Positions 1,139-5,463 of a DNA stretch of 6,104 nt are shown piece by piece. The notes under the pieces were generated by a model. The model searched no databases and was not told the origin of the DNA. It saw nothing but the letters and a program-made list of their open reading frames with translations. Positions within the stretch are counted from its first letter, which is position 1. Each line of letters opens with the position of its first letter. Source of the DNA: a virus (taxonomy: Duplodnaviria > Heunggongvirae > Uroviricota > Caudoviricetes); IMG/VR virus record IMGVR_UViG_2579778721_000001, positions 1 to 6,104 of that record, one strand, 5' to 3'. The position numbers were made by a program, and so were the translations under genes.

Positions 1139-1600
1139 CTACTGGTTACGTTTCTTTAGTGCCAGCATGTTCTCGAAGGCTTCCTCGTAGAGCTTGTTTA
1201 GTCCACGTAGCTGGTTAAGGAGTTTGGCTTTTTCTGACGCAGGTAGAATCTCGAAGAGGTTAAGTAACTCTGCCTGTTCTTCATTGACCAGCCTCCATCC
1301 TTTGCCTGAAAAGTTATCATCATAAGTATCTGATGATCTTACATAATTCATTAAGTCTTTAAGGTCTTCTCGAATGTCCTCTGGTTTTACCTTTAACAGA
1401 GCCGCAAATTTTAGCGCAGCGTCGGTATTTACCGGTATCTTGCCGTTCAGATACTGGCTAACGGTGCCTTGAGATTCGAATCCCAACAACTCAGCCGCCA
1501 GCTCTTGAGTCAGCTTCAGCTCTTTTTTTCTTGCATTCCATGCGGCTTTTAAATTCTTGCTCGCTTCTGGAGTTGCAATCACTTCGCGTGTTTTTTTCAT
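1139..1600 (-). CDS. Prophage repressor, HTH XRE/cI-type N-terminal domain, 153 aa, no S24 peptidase domain (DicA/RacR-type)
   Basis: ORF in track. The HTH segment QELAAELLGFESQGTVSQYLNGKIPVNTDAALKFAALLKV matches the lambda cI helix-turn-helix pattern ([39 protein letters not shown]). Divergent from a Cro-like gene. At 153 aa it is too short for a LexA-like C-terminal domain. No SD upstream of the ATG, consistent with a leaderless mRNA. Confidence 0.85.
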   Translation of the reverse strand: MKKTREVIATPEASKNLKAAWNARKKELKLTQELAAELLGFESQGTVSQYLNGKIPVNTDAALKFAALLKVKPEDIREDLKDLMNYVRSSDTYDDNFSGKGWRLVNEEQAELLNLFEILPASEKAKLLNQLRGLNKLYEEAFENMLALKKRNQ

Positions 1601-1983: not shown

Positions 1984-2392
1984 GCACATCCGCATGGCGA
2001 TGAATGCCTGGGCGCATCCGGACGGTGAAAAAGTTCCGGCAGCTGAAATAACCCGGGCTTATTTTGAGCTTGGTATGACGTTCCCGGAATTATATGACGA
2101 CAGCCATCCGGAAGCCCTGGCTCGCAATACCCAGAAAATTTTCCGCTGGGTGGAGAAAGACACTCCTGATGCGGTTAAAAAAATTCAGGCGTTGTTACCA
2201 GCGATCGAAAAAGCAATGCCGCCTCTGCTGGTGGCCCGAATGCGCAGCCACAGTTCAGCTTATTTTCGGGAGCTGGTGGAGACGCGGGAACGACTGGTGA
2301 GAGACGCTGATGATTTTGTCGCAGTGGCGATCGCTGGTTTCAACCAGATGAATCGTGGTGGCCCTGCAGGAAATATTGTGGCTGTGCATTGA
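1967..2392 (+). CDS. YdaT-type protein (cII functional analogue), 141 aa
   Basis: ORF in track. ATG 1967 overlaps the upstream stop (1981-1983) by 17 nt, with GGAG SD at 1956-1959. N-terminus MKIRHEHI and overall size match my recollection of the YdaT family; not verified by search. Confidence 0.7.
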   Translation: MKIRHEHIRMAMNAWAHPDGEKVPAAEITRAYFELGMTFPELYDDSHPEALARNTQKIFRWVEKDTPDAVKKIQALLPAIEKAMPPLLVARMRSHSSAYFRELVETRERLVRDADDFVAVAIAGFNQMNRGGPAGNIVAVH

Positions 2393-2463
2393 CTCGCAAT
2401 ATTCATACCGGATCACTTCCGGCAATTTGTGAGTAAAAAGATTCGGTATCAGAAGAGGTGAGT

Positions 2464-3504
2464 ATGGCTAACGCCTGGCTCAGATTATGGCATGACATGC
2501 CAAATGACCCTAAGTGGCGAACAATTGCCAGGGTGTCAGGGCAGCCAATTGCAACAGTGATGGCAGTGTATATCCACCTTCTGGTGAGCGCGTCACGAAA
2601 TGTCACGACATGTCACGGCGTGTCACTACGTGGTCACATTGATGTCACGACGGAAGATTTAGCAAGTGCGCTTGATGTGACGGAAGAAGTAATTGATTCA
2701 ATTTTACAGGCAATGCAGGGGCGGGTACTTGATGGAGATTTAATCACCGGATGGGAAAAACGCCAGGTACTGAAAGAGGACAATGGCAACGTTTCACAAA
2801 CCGCGAAATCCCCGGCAGAGCGCAAGAGAGCGCAGCGCGAGAGGGAAAAATTACGAAAACAGAATGAGGGGTGTCACGACGAGTCACGCATATGTCACGA
2901 CATGTCACGACGAGTCACGACAGATAAAGATACAGATAAAGAATTAAACCCCACACATAACGCGCACGTGCGCGAGAGTGCTCCGACCAGTGAGTCGAGT
3001 GGTACGCCGTTGCAGGCAGCAGAACCTGCATCCCTGGATGGACTGAGCGAACCCATCGGGAAATTTCCGATGGTCGATGACTGGCATCCGTCGCCGGATT
3101 TTCGACGACGGGCTGCGTTGTGGGGGATGGCTTTGCCGGAGCCGGAATTTACACCTGCTGAACTTGCCGCTTTCCGGGACTACTGGGCAGCGGAGGGGAA
3201 AGTTTTCACGCAGGTTCAGTGGGAGCAGAAATTCGCCCGTCACGTAAATCACGTCAGGGCGCAGGTTAAGCCAGTCAGCAAGGGGGTAAACCATGCAGCA
3301 GCACCAGGTGGCACCGCATCACGGGCAGTTCAGGAAATTCGGGCAGCACGTGAGCAGTGGGAACGTGAAAACGGATTTATCAGCGACGGAAACGGTCTGG
3401 AAGCTGTGGGAACTCATGGGGGAGGTTTATTCGAACCGCTGGACCCAGAAGAACGGGGCCGCACCTTCGAAGCTCTGGATTGCACAGATTGGCGCGATGA
3501 CTGA
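2464..3504 (+). CDS. Replication initiator (lambda O analogue): N-terminal DNA-binding region plus DnaT-like C-terminal domain; contains the putative origin
   Basis: ORF in track (GTG 2458; ATG 2464 preferred, GAGG SD at 2455-2458). Residues around FPMVDDWHPSPDFRRRAALWGMALPEPEFTPAELAAFRDYWAAEGKVFTQVQWEQKFARH align closely with the E. coli DnaT C-terminal domain ([59 protein letters not shown], from memory). Iteron arrays lie inside the gene, as in lambda O. Confidence 0.8.
   Translation: MANAWLRLWHDMPNDPKWRTIARVSGQPIATVMAVYIHLLVSASRNVTTCHGVSLRGHIDVTTEDLASALDVTEEVIDSILQAMQGRVLDGDLITGWEKRQVLKEDNGNVSQTAKSPAERKRAQREREKLRKQNEGCHDESRICHDMSRRVTTDKDTDKELNPTHNAHVRESAPTSESSGTPLQAAEPASLDGLSEPIGKFPMVDDWHPSPDFRRRAALWGMALPEPEFTPAELAAFRDYWAAEGKVFTQVQWEQKFARHVNHVRAQVKPVSKGVNHAAAPGGTASRAVQEIRAAREQWERENGFISDGNGLEAVGTHGGGLFEPLDPEERGRTFEALDCTDWRDD
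2591..2651. repeat. Iteron array 1: six direct copies of GTCAC(G/N)(A/N)C at 10-11 bp phasing
   Basis: GTCAC starts at 2592, 2602, 2612, 2622, 2633 and 2644. Spacing is not a multiple of 3, so the repeat is at DNA level, not protein level. Confidence 0.7.
2871..2921. repeat. Iteron array 2: five direct copies of GTCACGAC-type repeat at 10-11 bp phasing
   Basis: GTCAC starts at 2873, 2883, 2894, 2904 and 2914. Same orientation as array 1. Immediately followed by an AT-rich tract. Confidence 0.75.
2922..2947. other. AT-rich tract with direct repeat CAGATAAAGA x2 next to iteron array 2 (candidate DNA-unwinding element of the origin)
   Basis: cagataaagatacagataaagaattaaa is far more AT-rich than the surrounding coding sequence and directly abuts the last iteron, mirroring lambda ori architecture (iterons followed by an AT-rich region). 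Confidence 0.5.
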
Positions 3505-3958
3505 GCAGCAAATCCGACAGGTCTGCCGCCAGTGCATGGACCGCTGCCGGGCGGGTGAAACATGGCCTCCGGACCTGGCTGAGTTTGTGGCGCTGATTTC
3601 AGAAAGCGGGGCCAATCCATTTGGCCTGACGGTGGATGCTGTGATGGAGGAGTACCGCCGCTGGCGTGATGAGTCCTGGCGATATGACGGAAGCGACAAA
3701 TATCCGTGGCCTCAGCCTGTGCTGTACCACATCTGCCTCGAAATGCGTACCAGAGGGATTGAGCGCCAGATGACGCAGGGTGAGTTAAAACGACTTGCGG
3801 AACGGCAACTGACGAAATGGGCAAAGCATGTTGGTAACGGGATGAGTGTTCCGCCAGTGCGACGACAACTGGAAGGGGCGAAACACCCGCAAGGGCCAAC
3901 GCCAATTGAACGGCTGAAACAGGAATACGAACGCCGGAAGGCAGCTGGTTTTATTTGA
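3293..3958 (+). CDS. Lambda P-like replication protein (helicase loader), 221 aa
   Basis: ORF in track. Strong SD AGGGGG (3281-3286) 6 nt before ATG 3293. Colinear similarity to lambda P from memory: WIAQIGAMTEQ vs WVLAFRENGITTMEQ, YPWPQPVLYHICLEM vs YPWKSNAHYWLVTNL, ELKRLAERQLTKWAKHVGNG vs EFRRKAADELVHMTARINRG. The alignment register supports the 3293 start over the downstream ATGs. Confidence 0.7.
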   Translation: MQQHQVAPHHGQFRKFGQHVSSGNVKTDLSATETVWKLWELMGEVYSNRWTQKNGAAPSKLWIAQIGAMTEQQIRQVCRQCMDRCRAGETWPPDLAEFVALISESGANPFGLTVDAVMEEYRRWRDESWRYDGSDKYPWPQPVLYHICLEMRTRGIERQMTQGELKRLAERQLTKWAKHVGNGMSVPPVRRQLEGAKHPQGPTPIERLKQEYERRKAAGFI

Positions 3959-3991
3959 ATCTGAGAAACGATTTTGTCGGAGGAAATTTTA

Positions 3992-4762
3992 ATGGAAACC
4001 GTATTTGACGCACTGAAAGCAATGGGAAAAGCCACATCGGTAGAACTGGCCGCGCGACTTGATATCAGTCGTGAAGAGGTTCTCAACGAGCTGTGGGAAC
4101 TCAAAAGAAATGGCGTCGTTGATAAAACTGGTCACACCTGGTTTCTGGCTGGCGAAGGTGAATCCCGGGTAACCGAAGAGCGGCCAGTAAAATCTGAAGC
4201 ACAGGATATGCTGACCGGGGAGGTCGAACAAAAAGTTACCGCAGACATGATGATTGAGTTTATCGGTCAGGATGGTGCTAAAACGTGTGAGGAACTGGCG
4301 GGTAAGTTCGGCGTCAGTACTCGCAAGGTTGCCTCCACGCTGGCGGTGGTAACCGCAACGGGGCGGCTGGCACGCGTTAATCAGAACGGTAAATTTCGTT
4401 ACTGCATGCCGGGCGATAATTTACCAGCAGAGCCGAAAGCCGCGCTGGTAACGGAAAGTGATGGTAAGGCCTTTCCTCAGCCAGCAGGTGCTGCGTTACC
4501 AGTCCGGGAAGCCGCAACACAGGAAGAAATTAAAACAGAAACTGTGGCGGACATTGTGCAGCCGTTGCCATCGTTTACCGAAACGCAAGCAGATGAGCTG
4601 ATTTTTCCGTCCCTTCGCAGGGCAAACCTGGCGCTGCGCAGGGCGAAAAGTGATGTTCAGAAGTGGGAGCGAGTCTGCGCCGCGCTGCGGGAGGTGAACA
4701 AGCACCGGGATATTGTTCGACAGATTACTGATTCTTCCCGCCGTGTTGTATCGGAAAAGTGA
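3992..4762 (+). CDS. Hypothetical protein with two tandem winged-helix-like modules (256 aa from ATG 3992; the track ORF begins at TTG 3974)
   Basis: ORF in track. GGAGG SD (3979-3983) 8 nt before ATG 3992. Two internal HTH-like repeats (residues about 7-50 and 90-135). Confidence 0.7.
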
Positions 4763-4777
4763 TTGCCGGAGGCGCTT

Positions 4778-5170
4778 ATGGCAAAAGTATTTACACCAGA
4801 AGAGCGGGAAGAAGTGAAGGCGCGCATTGTGGAATTCGTGCGCCTGAGCGGACGAGAAACTTTTCGACAACTGGCAGATAAAACGGGTGTCAGTAAGACC
4901 GCTATTCGTCGTTTATCTGGTGCGCTTGCGGCCAGTGGTGATGTCTGGCTCTCTGGTTGCGGGGTATTTCCATCAGAGCAGGCGTATCGCGTATGGCGTA
5001 AGACACCGGAGAAGGCTGCTGACCCGACACTGATTCGAAAGTTACCTGACGGAGAAATACGTCGTTACAACAGACGGCAGAACATAATTTGTCGTGAGTG
5101 CCGCCAGAGCGAAGTTATGCAGCGTGTGCTGGCGTTCTATCGGGGAAACTTTCAGGAGGTGATGGAGTGA
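4778..5170 (+). CDS. Hypothetical winged-helix protein with C-terminal CxxC motif (130 aa from ATG 4778; the track ORF begins at TTG 4763)
   Basis: ORF in track. GGAGG SD (4768-4772) 5 nt before ATG 4778. The wHTH module EFVRLSGRETFRQLADKTGVSKTAIRRLSGALAASG is paralogous to module 2 of the upstream protein ([36 protein letters not shown]). Confidence 0.7.
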   Translation: MAKVFTPEEREEVKARIVEFVRLSGRETFRQLADKTGVSKTAIRRLSGALAASGDVWLSGCGVFPSEQAYRVWRKTPEKAADPTLIRKLPDGEIRRYNRRQNIICRECRQSEVMQRVLAFYRGNFQEVME

Positions 5171-5463
5171 GGGTCAGAGTTTATATTGCCGGTCCAATGA
5201 CGGGATATGAAAATTTCAACCGTGAGGCGTTTCACAAGGCGGAAGAGGAACTGAAACGGGAAGGGCATACCGTCTTAAACCCGGCAGTACTTCCGGACGG
5301 GCTGACACAGCCGCACTACATGGATATTTGCATGGCAATGATTCGTTGTGTGGATGCGATTTACATGCTGAATGGCTGGCAGCGGTCAGCGGGCGCTAAG
5401 GCAGAGCTGGCACTGGCGGAGAAACTGGGGCATGCAGTGATTTATCAGGAGGTGGCTCAATGA
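5167..5463 (+). CDS. DUF4406-like protein (nucleoside 2-deoxyribosyltransferase-like fold), 98 aa from GTG 5167
   Basis: Track ORF 5098..5463. Preferred start is GTG 5167, overlapping the upstream stop as GTGA, with GGAGG SD (5155-5159) 7 nt upstream. The N-terminal V-Y-I-A-G-P-M-T-G motif is typical of DUF4406 proteins (from memory). Confidence 0.65.
   Translation: MRVRVYIAGPMTGYENFNREAFHKAEEELKREGHTVLNPAVLPDGLTQPHYMDICMAMIRCVDAIYMLNGWQRSAGAKAELALAEKLGHAVIYQEVAQ

Follow-up and report, generated by a model that had tools for sequence, protein, structure and literature searches.

The window analysed here, 6,104 nucleotides (nt) of a tailed-phage record (IMG/VR IMGVR_UViG_2579778721_000001), is the immunity and replication region (6.1 kb) of an Escherichia coli prophage. 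It carries an initiator gene whose 3' end overlaps, out of frame, the 5' end of a gene for a helicase loader of the lambda P family. The initiator has a domain that resembles the C-terminal domain of the host primosomal protein DnaT, and an earlier note on this DNA had suggested that its pairing with a P-like loader amounts to a hybrid initiation route. The pairing is real, but it is common and already annotated, and it is not new. We propose, with a probability of about 0.7, that the two genes form a lambda-type 'initiator plus helicase loader' module that is built from exchangeable parts. The module is assigned to a Rac/lambdoid E. coli prophage. Since the DnaT-like domain appears not to conflict with a P-type loader, 'hybrid' would describe mosaic ancestry and not a new route. 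The protein-coding features are as follows (aa, amino acids).

2464..3504, plus strand: initiator gene, 346 aa, RefSeq WP_001262415.1 (open reading frame list and RefSeq annotation)
2464..2763, plus strand: N-terminal winged-helix domain of the initiator (aa 1-100), presumed iteron binder
3052..3267, plus strand: DnaT C-terminal-domain-like three-helix bundle (aa 197-268; Pfam, PDB, Foldseek)
3316..3369, plus strand: conserved initiator tail helix (aa 285-302, ASRAVQEIRAAREQWERE), candidate loader-docking element
3293..3958, plus strand: lambda-P-like helicase loader gene, long form of 221 aa (Pfam PF06992, PHROG 109, fold)
3293..3504, plus strand: out-of-frame overlap of the initiator 3' end and the loader 5' end, 212 nt, loader in the +1 frame

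The initiator and the loader

The initiator reading frame starts at 2458 or 2464 (348 aa from 2458), and its product matches PHROG families 1408 and 3729, 'replication initiation protein', with E=9e-117 and 9e-93. As a correction, the frame does not stop ahead of 3293 but runs to 3504, 212 nt into the P reading frame. The DnaT-like domain, which the earlier note had placed at 3040-3260, was recovered by each of the searches. Pfam DnaT (PF17948) matches at 64.1 bits (cutoff 25; E=9.6e-18) over aa 203-269 of the 348-aa frame, that is nt 3064-3264. A phmmer search of the initiator against all PDB sequences returned DnaT chains only (4ou6, 4ou7, 6aep, 2ru8, 9zbt, 9zbu; E about 4e-20), with 54-58% identity to the solved domains. 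The AlphaFold model of the region superimposes in Foldseek on DnaT 84-153 (4ou6; prob 1.00, target template-modelling (TM) score 0.76, root-mean-square deviation 2.0 Å, 54% identity).

In DnaT the C-terminal domain forms filaments on single-stranded DNA (ssDNA) that mark the helicase loading site in the mature preprimosome (PMC13377028), and the ssDNA-contact residues are F124, Y127, W128, K133, F135, K143, R146, S147, I150 and G151 (PMC4132743). Seven of these ten are identical in an alignment of the initiator with DnaT (initiator/DnaT pairs F237/F124, Y240/Y127, W241/W128, K246/K133, F248/F135, K256/K143 and R259/R146); the differing positions are S147H, I150H and G151V. The initiator is nevertheless not a DnaT orthologue, because it stays below the equivalog cutoff of NCBIfam NF002770, primosomal protein DnaT (97.4 bits against 201, profile positions 80-166 of 179 only), and lacks the DnaT N-terminal oligomerisation domain. 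Compared with E. coli DnaT (4OU6, 4OU7, 2RU8, 9ZBT), it has the three-helix bundle in common, is without the PhdYeFM-like N-terminal domain and without the DnaT C-terminal tail, and embeds the bundle in a 346-aa protein that would bind the origin.

That the domain resembles DnaT rather than the lambda O C-terminal domain was also borne out. Lambda O gave no Pfam DnaT match even at E<=10 and has no BLASTP similarity to the initiator, which in turn has no Pfam match to the lambda O family (PF04492 N-domain, lambda O C-domain). The possibility that the lambda O C-domain and DnaT are homologous after all was considered and found no support from Pfam (E<=10) or BLASTP, two methods that leave remote similarity possible. 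The initiator works like lambda O, yet stands outside the O family. Its N-terminal domain is not Pfam Phage_rep_O; the core is predicted well (predicted local distance difference test, pLDDT, about 87-93) and Foldseek returns weak matches to the winged helices of CRP, MarR and MntR (best prob 0.87, best E=0.7). Among its weak PHROG matches are replisome organizer and DnaD-like families.

Both sequence profiles and fold place the loader in the lambda P family, as the earlier note had expected. Pfam Phage_lambda_P (PF06992) matches aa 55-188 at 59.3 bits (cutoff 26; E=5.2e-16), so that the profile hidden Markov model matches of both proteins are above the gathering scores, and PHROG 109, 'P-like helicase loader', matches with E=2e-63. 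A profile built from 41 homologues found lambda P in the PDB (E=7.5e-6). With the predicted structure (mean pLDDT 76), Foldseek gave three PDB matches below E=0.001, all of them chains of lambda P in its complex with DnaB, 9oa1 (E=1e-5, alignment over 205 columns, overall TM 0.45-0.50), the top matches spanning domains II to IV; ranks 4-6 are lambda P too. Domain III alone (8v9s) matches with a target TM of 0.89 and E=0.037. The model thus contains the helical domains II and III and the C-terminal lasso helix of lambda P, although sequence identity to lambda P is only about 25%, over the C-terminal half. The protein would be expected to bind and open DnaB. P-family genes were also found without an upstream initiator, beside phosphotransferase-system (PTS) or LysR-type genes (loci L006 4001-4570, L007 380-949, L038 and L042); these may be remnants or domesticated copies.

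A candidate origin within the initiator gene

The initiator coding sequence contains a putative origin with a lambda-type layout, with iterons in clusters and an AT-rich stretch behind them.

2592..2651: iteron cluster A, six repeats of GTCACG type, most of them spaced by 10 bp, within the coding region of the N-terminal domain (repeat search)
2873..2921: iteron cluster B, five repeats of GTCACGAC type, spaced by 10-11 bp (repeat search)
2920..2949: A/T- and purine-rich stretch adjoining the iterons, likely unwinding region, and mosaic joint of the N- and C-terminal halves
2947..2959: conserved DNA box AACCCCACACATA, right of the AT-rich stretch
2961..2974: 14-bp perfect palindrome CGCGCACGTGCGCG, right of the AT-rich region and adjoining the box (direct sequence reading)

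The two clusters hold eleven GTCACG-type repeats in total. The heptamer TGTCACG occurs six times in the window against 0.7 expected, a number reached in 0 of 200 shuffles, and every copy falls inside the two clusters. The repeat number of cluster A differs among homologues, for example in protein P0195 and in phage Evi, and therefore protein length varies with iteron number. The coding region of cluster A corresponds to a predicted beta-hairpin (aa 44-62). The arrangement differs from that of lambda, which has four 18-bp iterons instead of two clusters of 10-bp repeats.

At about 2922-2942, within the AT-rich stretch, the megablast matches to phages split into two different sets: the phages that match the left part (cII-like gene, N-terminal domain, iterons) differ from those that match the right part (DnaT-like domain, P). 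The box AACCCCACACATA lies immediately to the right and is present in 88 of 128 loci, among others at L008 2410-2422, L011 2395-2407, L025 2663-2675 and L040 2681-2693. It is kept across unrelated initiator families and is read as LNPTH in some of them and, one base out of register, as KTPHI in others; being translated in two frames, it is therefore conserved at the DNA and not at the protein level. This pattern points to a DNA-level element of the origin, or to a recombination joint. The origin of lambda has a palindrome beyond its AT-rich region. In the window the palindrome adjoins the box, and in several loci a related GC-rich stretch is found after the box. The inverted-repeat pair I15 is a distant pairing that overlaps the palindrome only in the segment GCGCACGTGC.

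In view of the above, initiation could proceed as follows. The winged-helix N-terminal domain would bind the 10-bp-spaced TGTCACGAC iterons inside its own gene, after which the AT-rich region beside them would open. The DnaT-like bundle would bind the exposed single strand and probably oligomerise on it, as the DnaT C-terminal domain does on lagging-strand ssDNA. The initiator tail, consisting of the helix of aa 285-302 and a disordered end, may then recruit the P-DnaB complex via the N-terminal third of the loader, and loader domains II-IV would bring and open host DnaB like lambda P (PMC12661323). The likeness to lambda O-P extends to gene order, with two adjacent genes after cro- and cII-like genes, to iterons and an AT-rich region inside the initiator gene, to a presumed N-terminal origin-binding domain and to a loader of the lambda P family.

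Exchangeable parts and the choice of loader

The loader subfamily of the window was followed in a scan with one genome per species, which gave 31 loci. The initiator C-domain is DnaT-like in 18 of them (L014, which is 100% identical to the window, counted). Other initiators upstream of the same P subfamily have lambda-O-like C-domains (L031, L043, L005) or other kinds (L004, L029, L030 and others), and Phage_rep_O, DUF1376 and HTH_36 are among their N-terminal domains. The tail motif ASRAVQxIRAAREQWERE occurs in every initiator that precedes this P subfamily, whatever its C-domain, and codon-position diversity over the tail helix stretch tracks the initiator frame. The DnaT-like domain thus appears to be one of several interchangeable middle modules that are compatible with a P-type loader.

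The reverse exchange is seen in phages TL-2011b and ZX5, whose DnaT-like domain is 85-88% identical to that of the window, but which have a different tail and a different P N-terminus. Their initiator tail, LDWNNTDWIEGV, is similar to the C-terminus of lambda O, LDLTNTDWIYGVDL, and their P has an N-terminus like that of lambda P. The lambda O end (L003) recurs in this form in L008 and L128, which may mark an O-P contact. In phages phiV10, Tyrion, BUCT554 and ST512-KPC3phi13.3 a more distant DnaT-like domain is combined with the tail VPHWNSPEAWEDFL and with a third type of P N-terminus. The P proteins of phiV10 and TL-2011b share every residue (100% identity) from about aa 88 to the C-terminus, with diverged sequence ahead of that point, and their partner initiators differ in the tail. 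More distant DnaT-like initiators are also found with other loaders or with none: in pAEv1818 the partner is an IstB/DnaC-like ATPase, and in SPN1S and epsilon15 there is no adjacent loader. Phages Evi and vB_EcoS-689R5 combine the N-terminal domain and iterons of the window with another C-domain that is not DnaT-like and with a tail of the same type as the C-terminus of DnaT, and have no loader gene. The initiators of Evi (L130 2665-3735), L129 and SPN1S (L011) end in EPDxEIPPGFRG, near-identical to the extreme C-terminus of host DnaT; a host factor may dock on this terminal peptide.

That the tail tracks the loader type suggests that the tail docks P and that the DnaT-like domain handles origin ssDNA. 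A more tentative proposal, to which we give somewhat less than an even chance, goes further: the loader would be chosen by the C-terminal tail of the initiator and not by its globular C-domain, and this tail would travel between phages as one unit with the ~85 N-terminal residues of the loader, a unit that in this subfamily is locked by the 212-nt overlap. The DnaT-like domain would then be a loader-independent ssDNA-filament module, and modules without a loader would use DnaT's tail EPDxEIPPGFRG to reach host machinery. As to the hybrid route of the earlier note, the DnaT-like domain indeed sits where lambda O has its C-domain. A special route arising from lost O docking is not supported by the comparison, because DnaT-like domain, loader and C-domain types recombine and the shared element is the tail motif.

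Several points weigh against this interpretation. The confidence of the DnaT-like domain model is moderate (pLDDT 54-69), and the tail helix is a low-confidence prediction (pLDDT about 47-55). The tail and the 5' end of the loader are adjacent or overlapping, so that their co-inheritance could reflect linkage alone instead of contact. The distal tail (LFEPLDPEERG...LDCTDW) is conserved largely because the conserved P frame dictates it, so that its similarity to the end of lambda O may be fortuitous. Finally, the prophage may be cryptic or partly decayed, the neighbouring gene ydfC being marked as frameshifted by RefSeq (L001 1052-1271, strain ABU 83972; about 351-570 in the window, minus strand).

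Two other roles for the DnaT-like domain can be considered. The one closest to the hybrid route of the earlier note is that the domain links the origin to the host PriA-PriB restart primosome, with PriA-dependent loading beside or instead of P docking. The DnaT C-terminal domain docks on the HD2 and C-terminal domains of PriA via a hydrophobic surface and receives ssDNA from PriB. The identity of 54-58% to this domain would be consistent with such a role, as would the segment that precedes the bundle, which is acidic like the DnaT linker, and the DnaT tail at the end of initiators without an adjacent loader gene. The window initiator, however, has neither a tail of DnaT type nor the N-terminal domain of DnaT, and a dedicated loader comes after it; the iterons and AT-rich origin also point to sequence-specific rather than fork-specific initiation. 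We consider this role unlikely.

A little less probable still is that P docks on the DnaT-like domain itself, which would replace the lambda O C-terminal domain and make the tail irrelevant. The domain has the right position in the protein, rare single-chain proteins join a DnaT-like domain to P (P0119, P0141, P0162), and DnaT is thought to aid DnaB/DnaC recruitment (PMC4132743, PMC13377028). Yet the part of DnaT proposed to recruit DnaB/DnaC is its N-terminal domain, which is absent here, and P0141 reflects a deletion, as described below, and not a natural design. The exchange pattern is also difficult to reconcile with a docking platform: an 88%-identical domain pairs with a P of unrelated N-terminus, more distant domains occur beside a DnaC-like ATPase or without an adjacent loader, and the same P subfamily follows initiators without a DnaT-like domain.

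Among known systems, DnaT-domain initiators directly before P-family loaders are found in the Uetakevirus-type phages phiV10, Tyrion, BUCT554, TL-2011b and ZX5 and in ydaU/ydaV of Rac-SA53. Their N-terminal DNA-binding domains and iterons differ from those of the window, and, with the exception of Rac-SA53 and Chris1, they have other tails, other P N-termini and only short gene overlaps. The DopC/DopE proteins of Cellvibrionales and Oceanospirillales combine an O-like helix-turn-helix (HTH) protein with a C-terminal DnaT motif and a PF06992 P-like neighbour (Brezellec et al. 2017; PMC5509034). That pair is a domesticated one on the chromosome, for which no iterons are reported (PMC5509034). 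It has domain architecture alone in common with the window pair, which has a prophage context and clear iterons. The phage examples suggest that substitution by a DnaT C-terminal domain is a phage design and not a product of domestication.

Gene overlap, loader start and prophage setting

The overlap of initiator and loader genes is conserved. It is present in 25 of the 31 scan loci (L014 and 24 others) and additionally in L004 and L005. In 27 loci (the window, the 24 other scan loci, L004 and L005) its length ranges from 113 to 239 nt with a constant frame relation; the O and P genes of lambda overlap by 4 nt. Codon-position diversity, calculated as mean pairwise differences at P codon positions in 14 DnaT-type loci, was as follows for positions 1/2/3.

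Non-overlapping P: 0.16 / 0.10 / 0.51
Distal overlap (P aa 36-70): 0.14 / 0.12 / 0.40
Proximal overlap (P aa 1-35): 0.28 / 0.42 / 0.36

P is the frame under selection in the distal part. In the proximal part it is the initiator's third codon position that varies most (0.42), and the initiator is the better-conserved frame; here the P N-terminus is variable and predicted to be disordered (pLDDT <50, aa 1-27). Of the P-synonymous changes that would introduce a stop codon into the initiator frame, 0 of 319 are used in the overlap, against 27% elsewhere in P, a comparison that is partly circular as the overlap is defined up to the first stop. This circularity and the phylogenetic relatedness of the overlap loci count against dual coding, which is well supported by these data but not proven.

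The overlap bears directly on the start of P, which the earlier note had set at 3293, in our view correctly. RefSeq begins P at ATG 3497, giving a protein of 153 aa that drops about 68 residues of the 221-aa form. The RefSeq start is probably too late, and 3293 is favoured because of conserved residues, helices, the alignment with lambda P, a Shine-Dalgarno (SD) sequence and the residue found at position 69. W39, W50, K53, N54, G55, P58 and W62 are invariant or nearly so in P homologues down to 42-48% identity, and all lie upstream of residue 69, where the RefSeq form starts. That start also cuts a well-predicted helical core that resembles domain II (helices 25-46, 48-54 and 60-67; pLDDT 80-88). 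In the alignment M69 falls close to residue 80 of lambda P, midway through domain II, which comprises residues 30-119 (PMC12661323), and residue 69 is Leu in many homologues. The SD sequence is located as follows.

3282..3286, plus strand: SD-like GGGGG, 6 nt ahead of ATG 3293, within Gly codons of the initiator

By eye, a GGAGG-like run was counted 6-11 nt before the homologous ATG in roughly 24 of 27 loci, and the initiator Gly codons that encode it are conserved; inspection of the sequence ahead of ATG 3497 revealed no SD.

The alternative that P is the short form (3497-3958), coupled to the initiator stop (ATGACTGA) with the upstream frame as a by-product, can draw on its RefSeq annotation in about 1000 contigs and on the classic coupling arrangement in which ATG 3497 overlaps the stop, but is very improbable in view of the near-invariant residues and three helices upstream, the position and replacement of M69, the conserved ATG 3293 and its SD, the codon-position diversity in 3398-3502, which tracks the P frame, and P homologues that keep the same N-terminal motif without an overlapping initiator. 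A start at ATG 3416 (M42), where PHROG 33198 begins, is unlikely as well, as W39 and the helix from about residue 25 lie upstream and short P homologues retain the W-x-L-W motif.

PHROG 15931 contains 482 positions matching both the initiator and P. The window holds the direct repeats AGCAGTGGGAAC (3353-3364) and AGCTGTGGGAAC (3402-3413), 49 nt apart. Protein P0141 (481 aa, in two assemblies) is an in-frame fusion of initiator and P formed by a 49-nt deletion between direct repeats, and in fusion protein P0162 the joint is at another site. Such a deletion probably explains the 'fusion' family PHROG 15931. A programmed frameshift or a natural O-P fusion was rejected as unsupported, since fused proteins are rare, though a +1 shift would be possible.

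The remaining genes of the window agree with a lambdoid immunity and replication region.

1139-1600, minus strand: repressor
1702-1983: YdaS/cro-like gene
1967-2392: YdaT/cII-like gene
Gene order after the cII-like gene: initiator, P-like gene, DUF1627, DUF977, DUF4406, Ead/Ea22 genes

Downstream of P (3974-5463), DUF1627, with two HTH-like regions, DUF977 and DUF4406 are conserved companions of the module. DUF977 corresponds to the PHROG 'Ren-like' exclusion protein and is named LygF in phage records. A 1.8-kb segment that was tested (2300-4100) has exact (100% identical) counterparts in many complete E. coli genomes, ABU 83972 and NCTC86 among them, and a related segment occurs in 3226 of 5426 genomes. 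On the identical DNA of ABU 83972, RefSeq annotates 2464-3504 as 'DnaT-like ssDNA-binding domain-containing protein' and 3497-3958 as 'replication protein P', and it carries the pairing by name in thousands of records. The depositors of phiV10 had likewise annotated p43 and p44 as 'DnaT family' and 'Phage lambda P family'. A literature search did not find an experimental study of a module of DnaT-domain initiator and P-like loader, and a search on DnaT in lambdoid phages gave only PMC5509034 as relevant.

The pairing as stated in the earlier note therefore adds nothing beyond the databases and that one 2017 paper (PMC5509034). The phage modules put the latter in another light, as the DnaT C-domain substitution in DopC may be ordinary phage design and not an adaptation to chromosomal use. 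Recognition of the conserved dual-coding overlap is of modest practical value, and the RefSeq start of a widespread 'replication protein P' probably removes about 68 residues, half a structural domain included. The comparison also yields a testable guess at the contact between O-type initiators and P-type loaders, which is absent from solved structures: if the tail model is true, it predicts that the last ~15 residues of lambda O contact P domains I and II. For annotators and for work on the O-P contact, the useful elements are the overlap with its probably mis-set P start, the link between tail and loader type, and the frame-independent DNA box.

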